DNA of 32,000 bases from Marinicellulosiphila megalodicopiae. Lineage in GTDB: Bacteria; Pseudomonadota; Gammaproteobacteria; Pseudomonadales; Natronospirillaceae. The stretch lies in contig NZ_AP023087.1 of the NCBI RefSeq assembly GCF_045862395.1, positions 1,699,990 through 1,731,989 on the forward strand. Direction: 5' to 3'. Under the pieces are notes generated by a model. It saw only the letters and a program-made list of their open reading frames with translations. It had not been told where the DNA came from and searched no databases. Positions 26,229 to 32,000 of this stretch are shown piece by piece; position 1 is the stretch's first letter, and each line of letters opens with the position of its first letter. The translations under genes were made by a program, and so were the position numbers.

Positions 26229-26624
26229 ATGCGCAATACAAACATTGTCATATACATTATAAAGCGCCGCCCAATTGAAGTATTGACTCAGTTTAATAAC
26301 CACCAAGGACAATTATGCATTAGTAGCGTGACCTTGGCGGAGTTAATTCATGGGGTTGAAAAAAGCGAAAGACCTGAGCACAACCTTAAGCAAGTAGAAG
26401 ATTTTATTTCACGCTTAGAAGTGCTTGATTATCAAAGTGGTGCCGCGTTTCATTATGGTGAAATACGAGCGAATTTAGAAAAAAAAGGCACCACCATAGG
26501 TGTGAATGATTTGCATATTGCAGGGCATGCTCGAAGTGAAGGGTTGATTATTGTCACAAATAATTTAAAAGAATTTGATCGCGTAGAAGGATTGCGTTGT
26601 GAAAACTCGGTGGCAGAGCACTAG
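26229..26624 (+). CDS. vapC: VapC-type PIN-domain toxin with Asn at the first catalytic Asp position
   Basis: Collinear with Shigella MvpT/VapC as I recall it (...NIVIYIIKRRP...CISSVTLAELIHGVEKS...VNDLHIAGHARSEGLIIVTNNLKEFDRVEGLR). The N-terminus reads MRNTNI rather than MLDTNI. Confidence 0.85.
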   Translation: MRNTNIVIYIIKRRPIEVLTQFNNHQGQLCISSVTLAELIHGVEKSERPEHNLKQVEDFISRLEVLDYQSGAAFHYGEIRANLEKKGTTIGVNDLHIAGHARSEGLIIVTNNLKEFDRVEGLRCENSVAEH

Positions 26625-27083: not shown

Positions 27084-27923
27084 ATGGAAATCGAAACGTT
27101 ATTAACCCCACTGATTAAACCCTTTGTATATTTTGTAATATTTTCAATTTTTGTGGCAGTGATCAAGTCTGCTTGGTTCAAAGGTAAACTAGGGGAGTTT
27201 AAGGTTAATCTATTGCTGAAGTTGTTTCTAAATAAAGCACAGTATCATCTAATTAAAAATGTCACGTTACCGACCTTTGATGAATCAGGTCAGCACAGCG
27301 GAACCACACAGGTTGATCATATTGTAGTGAGTGCATTTGGTGTGTTTGTGATTGAAACCAAACATTTTAAAGGTTGGATATTTGGCAGTGAGTTCCAAAA
27401 GCAGTGGACACAACAGATTTACAAACATAAATCGAGATTCCAAAACCCGTTACTGCAAAACTACAAACATTGTAAAACCATAGAAAACCTGTTGGGTTTA
27501 GATGGCACTGACAAACAAGACAAGACCAAACGTTTGATCAAAAGCTTGGTGGTATTCACAGGCAGTGCTGAGTTTAAAACCGAGCTTCCAACGAATGTGT
27601 GTTATGACTCAAAACTGATTAAAACAATTAAAGGATTTAAAACCCAATTATTAGACGCACAGCAAGTGGCAAAAATAATCGAACAGATAGAATCTGGCCG
27701 ATTAAAGCGTGGGTTTGTTACTGACAAACAACATGCCGAGCATGTGAAGGTACTTGTTAAAGACAGTCAGTCAAGAGGCGGGAAAAGAGATAGTCAAAGA
27801 GTTACCCAAAGAGTAACGTCGTCAGGTAAACATGACAGACAGGGTGGTTTGAAGCGGGGTAGTAGAGTGGGTAGTGAGGTGGTTAGGTCTGAGATTGCTC
27901 GTGAAACTAGCGCTCAAGACTAG
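27084..27923 (+). CDS. NERD-domain (PD-(D/E)xK-like) nuclease-related protein, ending at an in-frame TAG
   Basis: N-terminal TM, then the NERD core TTQVDHIVVSAFGVFVIETKHFKGWIFG...WTQ, followed by a basic low-complexity linker. A perfect TATAAT lies at 27039-27044 upstream. Confidence 0.8.
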   Translation: MEIETLLTPLIKPFVYFVIFSIFVAVIKSAWFKGKLGEFKVNLLLKLFLNKAQYHLIKNVTLPTFDESGQHSGTTQVDHIVVSAFGVFVIETKHFKGWIFGSEFQKQWTQQIYKHKSRFQNPLLQNYKHCKTIENLLGLDGTDKQDKTKRLIKSLVVFTGSAEFKTELPTNVCYDSKLIKTIKGFKTQLLDAQQVAKIIEQIESGRLKRGFVTDKQHAEHVKVLVKDSQSRGGKRDSQRVTQRVTSSGKHDRQGGLKRGSRVGSEVVRSEIARETSAQD

Positions 27924-28289: not shown

Positions 28290-31200
28290 ATGAACGATAT
28301 CCAAATACCTGACTTTCTAAAAAAGTCCTTAGCTAGTGGCGAAGTTATTCCTTTGATTGGTGCTGGTGTTTCAATGTCAATTAAAACCAAGGAAGGTGAA
28401 AAAGCATTTCCTTCTTGGTCCGAATTACTTTTTAATGCAGCAGAAAAGCTAGAGAAAGAAGATAGTCAACTTGTTAAGCTTCAAGTAAAAAGAGGGAAGC
28501 TGCAACGCGCGGCTGAAGAAGCACAGGAGCTTCTAACAGGTCGTCCTTGGGGGGACTTTCTTAACTCACAGTTTTCTATTAATTTCAAAGAATTAGATGT
28601 TAGAGGTAAAGCGCTTCCTAAAGCTATTTGGCGATTAAGTAATAGAGTTGTCACTTTGAATTATGACAAGGTTCTTGAATGGGCTCACGAAGAATCTGCA
28701 AATTTATGTGTTTTTGACAATTCTAATTGCACTCAACTTTCAGAGTTTTCAAGACCAAGTCAACAAGAGATGCTCTGGCATTTGCACGGCACAATTGAAC
28801 ACCCAAAACACATGGTACTTACTCCGCAATCATACCACCGCTTATACGAAGAAGAAGCTGAAAAAAACTACAAAGCAGCGCTTACCAAGTTTAGAGAGGT
28901 GATTAGCAATAAGATCATTCTTTTTATTGGTTGCTCACTTGATGACGCAGAACTACTCGCTGAAATAGTGAAACAAAACGAGCTATTTGATGGGAATACT
29001 GGCCCTCATTATGCGCTGGTAAGAAAAACGGATGAACAGGAAATCAAGTCTAAGTTAACAGATAGTCATGTTCAAACCATTACTTTTAGTGATTTTGGTC
29101 AACCACTTATTGATGCTGTCACACAATTAGCTGAATGCAAAAAACAGCAACAGCTAGCAATCAATAATGAAAAAGAACTTAACCAACAACCTAAACTTGA
29201 CAATGACAAAGAACAAAAAAAGAAATTCAATAAAATAAGCCTGTTTACGGCCTCACCTTTAGATAAACCATTAGATGAAATTGATATCATCGCAAAACTT
29301 AAAAAATATAAATACCCTATTTTTCAACAAGCTTTCACCGAAAATAACCTAATGCAAGCCGATGATTACTCAATTATTTTATTACTCGCCAAGAAAACGA
29401 ATGGCGGACTTCTAATTGAAGATGATAATGCTTGTAGTGATTATTTAACTATTGAGGAGTTAGAACAAAACTTGCCAGTGAATGCTAAATTAACAGTATT
29501 GATAACGGACAAGTTACTTAGTGAGCAAGAACTAAAAACAATTAACTTTCCTTTGCTTGTTTTACCTGTATTAAATAAGCAGGGGAAAGATTTAAACATT
29601 CTAGATAAATTAACTCACCAGCTGTTTAAAAAACAGGATATTAAACCCTTTGTTGATAAAGAAGACATTCAATTAGTACAAGTTAGCGACGAGTTATTGA
29701 AGTCACTTAACCCTGAAAATCGAAAGGATTGGTTGAAGCATAATCCTGTATTACCCCGTGATATTAACTCAAGTGAGCTACAAGGTTTTACTGGGCGATT
29801 ATCTGATTTAGCTGATATTAGTCAAAAACTTACCAAAGCGGCGAATGGCCAAAGATTATTAACCATCAAGGGGAGTGGCGGGCTAGGAAAAACTACGATA
29901 GCAAAAAAAGTTGCATTAGAATTAGCCAATCGTGGCCGCTTTGATGCAGGCGTTTACTTTGTTGATTGTGAAAGTATAACCAGCGTAAATCAACTTGAAA
30001 TGCATATAGGTGAAGCTTTTAAATTACGCTCCGCTGATGATTTATTTGGCTACTTGGCGCAACATCACGATCAGCTTAGTCGCTTGTTGATTTTTGATAA
30101 TTTAGAAAGTTTGCTGTATTTAAAAAAATCTGACAAACAGCAAAACAAACAAGCTGTAGATCAAGTTAAAATTTTGTTATCACGTACTTTGATGTATGCG
30201 AACGTATTAGTGACCTCAAGAGAGATTATGAACACTGAATGGGAAGATGTGCTGTCGTTCAGGCAAATGGAATCTGAAGAGGCGCTAACCCTATTTAATC
30301 GTTTAACCAAAAATAACTATCTCAACGAAGATGATCAGGGCTATGTACGTAGGAAAATTTTAGAGCCGCTACTTAACAATAATCCGTTAGCTATTAAACT
30401 TATTTGTGATGGCATGCCTAATGGTAAGTGCTTAAAAGGGTTGAAAAAAGAGTTAGAAGATGACTTTTTTGGTAAGGTCAAAGAAGAAGATTTAATCTTG
30501 ATGTTTGACGATGAAGTTGACGCTAATATTAACCGCCAAGAATCGCTTTACGTTTCTATTCTATATTCATATGAAACGCTAAATAATAGTCAGAAGAGAG
30601 CGCTTGAATCATTTTCTCTATTTCCAGATGGTATTGACTTAAAAACCTTTAAGGCTTTGGTAGCAGAAAGCAAAAAAAGTGACCGAAACCAATACGAGAA
30701 TAAATTTAAAAAACCCGTTAGCGACAAAGATATTACGGTACTTGCAAATAAATCATTAATTGAAAGTAATAATGGAATTTATTCTCTACAGTCTGTCATT
30801 CAACGTTTTTCCCGTTTTCGATTTGACCAAAACACTCAAGAAAAAGATAAGATTGAACTTTTTAGAGGAGCACTTCGTTATAATGAGAAAACGCTGGAGT
30901 TTATTCAAAAATTAGAGAGAGTAAATAAAAAAGCAATCCCTCTATTTCTTTCAATCGTAAATAACTTATTCGCTGCAATTACCTATGGAACTAAAGAAAA
31001 TGTTGTGAGAAATTCAGAAGAAATAGAAGATTATTTTCATATGGTAAGAGCAATTAAAAACTTATCAATTACATTGAACTTATCTCACGACTTTTTAACC
31101 GTACTTAATGAAAATGCTATTGAACATCTCATCACTGAAAATAATAAAGAACAGCTAGAATTAGCATGGCAACTATTTAAAGTTAGCTCTATGTATTATA

Positions 31201-32000
31201 ACGGGGAATTTGATACTGCGTACAGCCAGTTAAATTCATTAATCCCTGTTAAGCTATTAATGACTATCTATGAAAATGATGAAAATGATGAACTTAATAA
31301 TATAATTTATCATACGGCGCAACACGTATATTCCATGGAAGGTGATATTATCAATAATGTTTTGCATATTGAAAAGTTTAATCAGTATCGCTATTTTACG
31401 TTAGTAGCATCTCAAGTACAAACAGCAATGAATGTTGAGCCATTGATGAAGCTGGTTATTCCTGACTTAGATTACTTCGAAGCGCAAAGTTATTTAAGTG
31501 AGGGTGTAGACCTTAATCAAATAAATAAAGTGATTGATGAGTTGCACGAGAATGAACATTTAGACCGAGTAAATTTAACTTATATTAAGTCACGTGATGA
31601 GTATGTGAATTATGAGGTTATCGAAAAATTAGTTAATGTAAACCCTTATACGAGAGGTTTAAAAAGACTGATGTATGCACTTTCATTTGAACATAAATTA
31701 CTTGCTGAAGAGGCTAACCCTGAAAAGAGTATTCCTGACGAGCATAATATCGAATTAAATAATAGGGTTATCGGTTATTATCAATCAGCATTAACTGATT
31801 TAAAGCATATCAAATTTTACTACGTGCAAGCACTTTATTTTTATGCGAGGTTTCTACAAAAAACAGATAATAAAAATTTCGAAAAAGTCTATGAAAACGG
31901 ATTACAATTAACGAAAAAACACCATTATCGTCTTTGGCAACATAAGTTTCATTTGTTGAAACAGCCAGCATTAGGGCCCTATAAACCTGAGAACTATCCT
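28290..32000 (+). CDS. SIR2-like / degenerate CHAT-like module / NB-ARC STAND ATPase / helical-repeat protein, 3'-truncated by the window edge (candidate anti-phage sensor-effector)
   Basis: My own translation: ATG at 28290, then 1,237 sense codons to nt 32000 with no stop, which is why it is absent from the track. Motifs seen:
- SIR2_2-type: VIPLIGAGVSM, TLNYD (N124, nt 28659), WHLHG (H166, nt 28785), LFIGCSLDD
- NB-ARC Walker A: GSGGLGKTT (29871-29897)
- NB-ARC Walker B: LLIFDNLE (D603, nt 30096)
- further NB-ARC motifs: VLVTSRE, a GLPL-like NNPLAIKLI, an RNBS-D-like FSLFPDGIDL, and LQS at the MHD position
- alpha-helical repeats from about nt 30825 onward. Confidence 0.85.
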   Translation, partial: MNDIQIPDFLKKSLASGEVIPLIGAGVSMSIKTKEGEKAFPSWSELLFNAAEKLEKEDSQLVKLQVKRGKLQRAAEEAQELLTGRPWGDFLNSQFSINFKELDVRGKALPKAIWRLSNRVVTLNYDKVLEWAHEESANLCVFDNSNCTQLSEFSRPSQQEMLWHLHGTIEHPKHMVLTPQSYHRLYEEEAEKNYKAALTKFREVISNKIILFIGCSLDDAELLAEIVKQNELFDGNTGPHYALVRKTDEQEIKSKLTDSHVQTITFSDFGQPLIDAVTQLAECKKQQQLAINNEKELNQQPKLDNDKEQKKKFNKISLFTASPLDKPLDEIDIIAKLKKYKYPIFQQAFTENNLMQADDYSIILLLAKKTNGGLLIEDDNACSDYLTIEELEQNLPVNAKLTVLITDKLLSEQELKTINFPLLVLPVLNKQGKDLNILDKLTHQLFKKQDIKPFVDKEDIQLVQVSDELLKSLNPENRKDWLKHNPVLPRDINSSELQGFTGRLSDLADISQKLTKAANGQRLLTIKGSGGLGKTTIAKKVALELANRGRFDAGVYFVDCESITSVNQLEMHIGEAFKLRSADDLFGYLAQHHDQLSRLLIFDNLESLLYLKKSDKQQNKQAVDQVKILLSRTLMYANVLVTSREIMNTEWEDVLSFRQMESEEALTLFNRLTKNNYLNEDDQGYVRRKILEPLLNNNPLAIKLICDGMPNGKCLKGLKKELEDDFFGKVKEEDLILMFDDEVDANINRQESLYVSILYSYETLNNSQKRALESFSLFPDGIDLKTFKALVAESKKSDRNQYENKFKKPVSDKDITVLANKSLIESNNGIYSLQSVIQRFSRFRFDQNTQEKDKIELFRGALRYNEKTLEFIQKLERVNKKAIPLFLSIVNNLFAAITYGTKENVVRNSEEIEDYFHMVRAIKNLSITLNLSHDFLTVLNENAIEHLITENNKEQLELAWQLFKVSSMYYNGEFDTAYSQLNSLIPVKLLMTIYENDENDELNNIIYHTAQHVYSMEGDIINNVLHIEKFNQYRYFTLVASQVQTAMNVEPLMKLVIPDLDYFEAQSYLSEGVDLNQINKVIDELHENEHLDRVNLTYIKSRDEYVNYEVIEKLVNVNPYTRGLKRLMYALSFEHKLLAEEANPEKSIPDEHNIELNNRVIGYYQSALTDLKHIKFYYVQALYFYARFLQKTDNKNFEKVYENGLQLTKKHHYRLWQHKFHLLKQPALGPYKPENYP

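Follow-up and report, generated by a model that had tools for sequence, protein, structure and literature searches.

We analyzed a stretch of 32,000 nucleotides from the gammaproteobacterium Marinicellulosiphila megalodicopiae (contig NZ_AP023087.1, positions 1,699,990 to 1,731,989; "the window"). Our subject is a gene at the end of the window, and in particular the part of its product that lies between a SIR2 domain and a STAND NTPase. According to the lists of open reading frames and the translation, the gene starts at position 28290 and its open reading frame extends beyond the end of the window (28290..32000, plus 117 more nucleotides). The full gene (L002:2280-6107) encodes a protein of 1275 amino acids, P0002. 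From the N terminus to the C terminus, P0002 has a SIR2 domain, a candidate pseudo-CHAT (degenerate caspase-fold) module, an NB-ARC NTPase, and a helical region that is presumed to be the sensor. All of the features that we describe in the window are on the forward (+) strand.

The SIR2 domain (aa 1-282; 28290..29135) is classified as an NADase-type effector from its Pfam, PADLOC, and PDB sequence matches and from its motifs. SIR2_2 (PF13289) matches at aa 119-258 (E = 7.6e-23), and the motifs GAGVS (aa 24-28), TLNYD (aa 122-126), and HLHG (aa 164-167) are intact; the latter two are the motifs with the catalytic Asn and His of SIR2_2. With PADLOC, we found LmuA and ThsA SIR2 matches, plus a weak match to mad8. 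In a PDB sequence search with all of P0002, the SIR2 part matched FAM118B and ThsA, and otherwise only the P-loop part had matches.

The STAND NTPase (aa 508-712; 29811..30425) is NB-ARC or nSTAND3-like. NB-ARC (PF00931) matches at aa 508-712 with E = 4.4e-12 and nSTAND3 (PF20720) matches with E = 8.7e-7, while NACHT and AAA have weaker matches than NB-ARC to the same P-loop region. Both nucleotide-binding motifs are intact: Walker A is GSGGLGKTT (aa 528-536, nucleotides 29871-29897; GKT at aa 533-535, with the lysine K534), and Walker B is LLIFDN (aa 599-604). The presumed sensor is the helical region that makes up the C terminus, starting at about aa 881 (30930..32000); it is the least conserved part of P0002 and has no match in Pfam.

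Between the effector and the NTPase, a low-complexity linker rich in K, Q, N, and E (aa 283-314; 29136..29231), which we identified by reading the sequence directly, would tether the SIR2 domain to the module. The linker is variable among relatives, and the predicted local distance difference test (pLDDT) is about 52 at the start of the structural model described below. The module follows (aa 315-472; 29232..29705). No model from Pfam, NCBIfam, or PADLOC matches aa 300-495, between SIR2_2 and NB-ARC; the sole match to the module in these scans, to ArsA_HSP20 (E = 0.025), was judged to be due to chance. Because the module has no Pfam model, it is missed by current annotation. It was pointed out in an earlier note on this DNA, which proposed that nucleotides 29226-29729 encode a catalytically dead CHAT or caspase-like domain. 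Those nucleotides do encode aa 313-480 of P0002, and the peptide that the note quoted is found there.

Predicted fold and remote homology of the module

We predicted the structure of aa 305-495 (window:29202-29774), aligned with 35 homologues, using AlphaFold2 (AF2). The model has a mean pLDDT of 82.7 and a predicted template modeling score (pTM) of 0.80. Its elements are, in order, b1, a1, b2, a2, b3, a short bridge, a beta-hairpin, a3, b4, a4, b5, a long a5, a short strand b6, and a helix. Strands are at aa 316-320, 344-348, 362-366, 401-405, and 422-425, with a helix after each, and the hairpin is at aa 373-386. The earlier note had claimed a regular alternation of strands and helices for aa ~313-480, and the model shows it.

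When we compared this model to the PDB with Foldseek, the top five matches were all CHAT or caspase structures (E = 3.4e-4 to 7e-3). SAVED-CHAT took the first two ranks, with chain 8tl0_D (E = 3.4e-4, a query-based template modeling score (TMq) of 0.57, 10% identity) and then 8tl0_B; next were Craspase TPR-CHAT (7xsr_C, E = 3.4e-3) and murine caspase-11 (6ns7, E = 5e-3). As a control, we used the authentic short CHAT domain of a related protein, P0057 (L007:3001-3555), whose AF2 model has a pLDDT of 91.3. Its elements are in the same order as in the module, including the bridge and the hairpin after b3, and its top chain in Foldseek is also 8tl0_D (E = 1e-15, TMq = 0.87), with caspase-4 and caspase-11 next. 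Judged by these matches, the module has the caspase-hemoglobinase alpha/beta fold.

The short CHAT domain is the N-terminal protease effector in many bacterial STAND proteins. The earlier note had given a consensus for it, and this consensus is real: that of 38 authentic short CHAT domains is almost identical to it, with invariant HF.GHG and C..N.C. Among these 38 domains, P14, H68, F69, G71, H72, G73, C108, N112, and C114 are invariant, and E81 is nearly so. For example, the N terminus of P0057 reads KKILIFSANPKD...IVHFCGHGEEEGILVED...CVLLNSCHS, which is the consensus that the note gave. After its CHAT domain, at aa 190-365, P0057 also has a copy of the module (KIALLSASPLD...YVFICSKVIKNKLLIEN...GIFLFVDQL). 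A search with the CHAT region of P0057 found 75 proteins, many of which are cyanobacterial, and many of which have two or three tandem copies of the domain.

The family of the module itself is rare. Using phmmer to compare the module to 1.84 billion cluster representatives (E <= 1e-3), we found 34 proteins (clusters at 50% identity). Most of these proteins are about 1200 amino acids long, with the match near residue 310, as in P0002. When phmmer was run with an authentic short CHAT domain, the module was not picked up at useful E-values, so profile methods were required. We used hhalign to compare a profile of the 34 module sequences to a profile of 85 short CHAT domains. Without secondary structure, the score was 31 (P = 4e-4, across 84-93 columns). 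With DSSP strings added, the probability was 80% (P = 2.4e-4), and the alignment included 114 columns, from b1 to b5. For 200 column shuffles of the module profile, the score averaged 12.8 (standard deviation 2.6) and reached at most 26.6, and the reversed profile scored 10. Slices of the same protein family from the SIR2 domain, the nucleotide-binding domain (NBD), the helical and winged-helix domains (HD-WHD), and the sensor scored 11-16 against the CHAT profile (P = 0.17-0.46). In global mode, hhalign gave a weak result (P = 0.015), and a profile of close homologues alone was also weaker (P = 0.014). Two motifs are common to the module and to short CHAT at cognate positions: K-I-x-L-x-x-A-x-P in b1 and G-L-x-[IL]-E-D in the hairpin. 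Sub-threshold reciprocal matches with hidden Markov models (HMMs), between the module and short CHAT, coincide with these two motifs.

The same alignment shows what became of the catalytic residues. It pairs HFCGHG of short CHAT with LLLAKK of the module and LNSCHS with LITDKL, which are the equivalences that the earlier note had given. The catalytic His of the GHG motif (H72 of P0057) corresponds to K368 (29391..29393), and the catalytic Cys (C114) corresponds to D407 (29508..29510; this pairing is from the extended and the secondary-structure-aware alignments). Two other residues of short CHAT are retained: P14 corresponds to P323, at the end of b1, and E81 corresponds to E377 (29418..29420), within the GLLIED of the hairpin after b3. 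As aligned, then, the module appears to keep the fold, the proline, and the glutamate, and to have lost both members of the dyad. The His-Cys dyad is present in none of the 34 representatives of the module family. By column counts, the His position is not conserved (K, R, Q, N, and others) and 28 of 33 representatives (85%) have Asp at the Cys position, while P323 is found in 32 of 34 and E377 in all 34.

Given the fold matches, the profile alignment, and the absence of the dyad across the family, we are confident that aa 315-472 is a degenerate and catalytically dead short CHAT (caspase-fold) domain, as the earlier note had supposed. That note had also set out in advance three findings that would refute its proposal: a fold unrelated to caspases and CHAT, no significant profile match, and a consensus that does not map onto these positions. 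We saw none of the three. In Foldseek, flavodoxin and receiver folds fall below the CHAT and caspase structures; the alignment of homologues confirms that relatives lack His and Cys as well; and a profile match was found, in our purpose-built comparison to short CHAT and not in Pfam.

Several points weigh against this identification. Neither CHAT (PF12770) nor Peptidase_C14 from Pfam matches at E <= 1, whether the module alone or the whole protein is used. The similarity of the module to CHAT is remote and the significance of the profile-profile comparison is modest: without secondary structure, the probability from hhalign is just 35%, and the DSSP strings derive from the pair of AF2 models rather than from an independent predictor. 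It is the profile alignment, not a superposition of the models, that assigns K368 and D407 to the dyad sites. A new kind of binding or catalytic pocket could instead explain why Asp is conserved at the Cys position and why E377 is invariant. Also, three-layer alpha/beta folds easily resemble one another, and D-lactate dehydrogenases, receiver domains, and flavodoxins match the model of the module at lower ranks (E = 0.009-0.06, TMq <= 0.41).

These lower-ranking matches would be expected if the module were an alpha/beta domain of a generic, flavodoxin-like or receiver-like kind that shares no ancestry with CHAT and resembles it by the convergence of three-layer sandwiches. The lack of a Pfam match and the low probability from hhalign fit this explanation, as does a fold search against viral proteins (BFVD), which gave generic alpha/beta matches only; the top one was an uncharacterized myovirus protein with a root-mean-square deviation of 12.8. 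However, CHAT and caspase structures take ranks 1-5, with a TMq of 0.57 for the best of them, and the control short CHAT shares the module's top chain, its order of elements, and its hairpin after b3. The profile-profile score is well above those of the shuffles and of other alpha/beta domains, and convergence would also have to account for the two motifs at cognate positions. Finally, true CHAT copies stand in tandem with the module, and their family is prone to CHAT arrays. We consider a generic domain to be improbable.

The module as part of one NTPase clade

Pfam and HMM scans showed that in every module-bearing protein, the module is directly before the NTPase, while the effector ahead of it varies. 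CHAT precedes the module and the STAND NTPase in P0057, P0077-P0084, and P0089, several of which are named Candidatus Electrothrix; P0076 has two copies of CHAT; and P0065, P0082, and P0090 have SIR2 as well as CHAT. In P0074, a calcineurin-like metallophosphoesterase holds the effector position, before the module and an NB-ARC chassis. (We know of no test of a metallophosphoesterase effector in STAND defense proteins.) Regardless of the effector, P0002's nucleotide-binding oligomerization domain (NOD; aa 476-880) matches all of the module-bearing proteins, with E = 1e-50 to 1e-150. The sensor of P0002 also matches several of the CHAT-bearing proteins (E = 1e-33 to 1e-41). In contrast, CHAT-STAND proteins without the module (P0086, P0088, P0123, P0139, and P0145) have no match to the NOD of P0002 at E <= 1e-3; the NOD that they carry is unrelated. 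Within the close family, pairwise identity averages 0.70 in SIR2, 0.74 in the module, 0.75 at the junction to the NBD, 0.81 in the NBD, and 0.60 in the sensor.

Because the module is always next to one clade of STAND NTPases, because the effectors vary, and because it is conserved to a similar extent as SIR2, we consider it to be part of the NTPase chassis rather than an accessory of SIR2. As we picture it, the module, the NOD, and the sensor form a rigid chassis, and the effectors are tethered ahead of it via flexible linkers. The earlier note had described the module as inserted between SIR2 and NB-ARC. This is correct as to its location, but the module is better described as the N-terminal domain of one STAND clade, with the effectors being what is swapped.

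The earlier note had also suggested that the module might be a non-catalytic spacer, adaptor, or oligomerization module. As a mere spacer, it would be the decaying remnant of a former effector, with no specific role, and the loss of both catalytic residues is what decay would look like. But the mean pairwise identity of the module is at or above that of SIR2, and its invariant and near-invariant residues are kept over 34 clusters, down to ~27% identity. Its fold is also predicted confidently, and it is kept whatever the effector. Since the module is this well conserved, a pure spacer is unlikely, and we give very little credence to a remnant without a role.

The relatives have some other features of interest. 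In relatives such as P0057 (L007:3001-6273), several of which are named Candidatus Electrothrix (cable bacteria), an active short CHAT, or CHAT and SIR2, is ahead of the same chassis. Relatives that combine CHAT and SIR2 are NLR-like proteins with two effectors, a protease and an NADase, on a single chain. Also, short CHAT is often present in two or three tandem copies per protein (P0075, P0076, P0079, P0083, P0085, and P0087). For example, P0075 has three copies and P0076 has two, along with the dead module. These tandem copies suggest that the domains act as intramolecular pairs or arrays.

In the window, the SIR2-STAND gene is in an accessory stretch that follows flagellar genes. Next to it, just upstream, are a PIN-domain toxin gene (window 26229-26624; E = 2e-17) and a NERD-domain gene (window 27084-27923; Pfam E = 8e-31). 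We considered whether NERD and SIR2-STAND might be a two-gene module, and rejected the idea after examining the neighborhoods of homologues at 4 loci, which were obtained by a scan of genome contigs. NERD is missing beside the homologues, notably at L004 and L006, which have ~5 kb of upstream sequence. So, the SIR2-STAND gene appears to stand alone, and its pairing with NERD looks local.

The module, and with it the gene, is rare among relatives. Across 301 genomes of the same order, there was a strong match only in the window's own genome, plus 3 marginal matches, and the module was found in 0 of 8 genomes of the same family. Among named homologues, the closest belong to Idiomarina, Pseudoalteromonas, Shewanella, and an Oceanospirillum metagenome-assembled genome. 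Such a patchy spread is typical of horizontally moved defense genes.

A proposed coupling layer

Taking these results together, we favor, with some reserve, the explanation that the module is a dead short CHAT that has become the fixed N-terminal layer of one STAND NTPase clade, where it is a non-catalytic scaffold that couples oligomerization to the effector. For the scaffold or coupling role considered by itself, our proposal is tentative and might well be wrong. We imagine that a phage cue would be bound by the C-terminal helical sensor and that the NB-ARC part would then oligomerize. The pseudo-CHAT layer, being rigidly joined to the NTPase, would make homotypic contacts, as the CHAT domains do in SAVED-CHAT filaments (where CHAT-CHAT contacts occur; bioRxiv 10.1101/2023.06.23.546230). 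Such contacts would determine how far apart, and in what orientation, the tethered SIR2 domains come together. The assembled SIR2 domains would hydrolyze NAD+, aborting the infection.

A precedent is the SIR2-STAND protein Avs5, which is activated by assembly (PMC11897194), and P0002 probably is too (PMC11897194; PMC12931631). By this analogy, P0002 has a putative role in NAD+-depleting protection from phage upon assembly. A point against the proposal as a whole is that the oligomeric contacts, the NADase activity, and the phage defense of P0002 are all predictions. As for how the layer arose, a short CHAT effector ahead of this NTPase was likely duplicated in tandem, and catalysis was then lost in the proximal copy (we infer the direction). 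Tandem CHAT arrays are common in the family, which makes this kind of duplication and decay plausible.

Alternatively, the module might be a regulatory pseudo-protease that keeps the caspase groove as a site for a peptide or another ligand. It might keep the effector off until the NTPase has switched, or help to detect a peptide of phage or cellular origin, or, in relatives with an active CHAT, pair with it as cFLIP does with caspase-8. Conserved polar residues at the C-terminal ends of b1 (P323, D325) and b4 (D407, 85% Asp), along with E377 in the hairpin, lie where the edge of a ligand site usually is. The module is as constrained as SIR2, and in the Electrothrix-type proteins an active CHAT is in direct tandem with it. 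Inactive caspase domains elsewhere in bacteria have been proposed to have dominant-negative or peptide-binding roles (PMC7159879). However, P323, D325, and E377 are conserved in active short CHAT domains as well, so they may be a structural inheritance; most members of the family have no CHAT partner to regulate; and no ligand or partner can be identified from the sequence. Overall, we think that a regulatory pseudo-protease is unlikely, but it deserves more weight than a generic domain or a spacer.

More specifically, the pseudo-CHAT could be a bacterial cFLIP-like pseudo-caspase regulator within an NLR-like receptor, that is, a coupling layer that gates any effector ahead of it, whether a SIR2 NADase, an active CHAT protease, or a phosphoesterase, via caspase-type homotypic or groove contacts. 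We are similarly doubtful about this version. If it is true, then NOD contacts alone would not suffice to activate an effector in this STAND clade, and activation would depend on pseudo-protease pairing.

Whether as a scaffold, which we prefer, or as a regulator, the module adds to what can be learned from SIR2-STAND (Avs5-type) proteins, which are structural models of how bacterial NLR-like receptors turn on an NADase when they assemble. Between switch and effector, this family has an additional, conserved layer. This layer is derived from a protease effector, without its catalysis, and together with the NTPase chassis it bears at least four sets of effectors (SIR2, CHAT, CHAT with SIR2, and metallophosphoesterase). 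This is a natural experiment in how oligomerization reaches an effector and in how evolution exchanges effectors, and it is a prokaryotic case of a pseudo-caspase that is kept inside an immune receptor.

Comparison with known systems

P0002 resembles Avs5 (AVAST type 5; EfAvs5 and PaAvs5) in having an N-terminal SIR2_2 domain with intact motifs, a central STAND NTPase (with a weak match to nSTAND3), and a C-terminal sensor, and in being encoded by a single gene in an accessory region. It differs in that its best NTPase match is NB-ARC, the Avs models of PADLOC do not match it, and a PDB sequence search did not link it to the Avs5 entries. It also has a longer connection. The subunit of EfAvs5 consists of SIR2, NBD-HD-WHD, and sensor, and its Walker A lysine is K379 (PMC11897194). 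The corresponding lysine of P0002 is K534, so there are ~155 extra residues between SIR2 and Walker A, and these are the pseudo-CHAT module.

The module's fold class is shared with the short CHAT domains of STAND, NACHT, and TPR proteins and with SAVED-CHAT (8tl0; PF12770, in the caspase clan), which is its best structural match. The likeness includes the order of the elements, with a hairpin after b3, and the motifs KIxLxxAxP in b1 and GLx[IL]ED in the hairpin. The spacing between the dyad positions is also similar: 39 residues in the module of P0002, 42 in the CHAT domain of P0057, and 47 in SAVED-CHAT (H375 and C422). But in the module, the alignment has a variable Lys in place of His and an Asp in place of Cys; also gone are the glycines on either side of the His and the Asn that precedes the Cys. 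The module has shorter a1 and a2 helices as well, and a different order of helix and strand toward its C terminus. CHAT domains are in a terminal effector position, whereas the module is between the effector and the NTPase.

Kaur et al. 2020 (PMC7159879) described catalytically inactive caspase-like domains in vWA-MoxR ternary conflict systems. As in those systems and in cFLIP, the module has a caspase fold that lost catalysis and was retained in an immune or cell-death protein, with a proposed role as a scaffold, a dominant negative, or a peptide binder. The inactive domains of the vWA-MoxR systems are in the effector position of the vWA component, and cFLIP is a separate regulator of an active caspase; in contrast, the module of P0002 is fused to a STAND NTPase, directly upstream of it, and in its family it mostly goes with an effector that is not a protease (SIR2). 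In the literature that we searched, we found no description of a pseudo-CHAT that is fixed between an effector such as SIR2 and the NOD. Both of the kinds that it combines, inactive caspase domains of bacterial conflict systems and defense proteins of the SIR2-STAND type, were already known.

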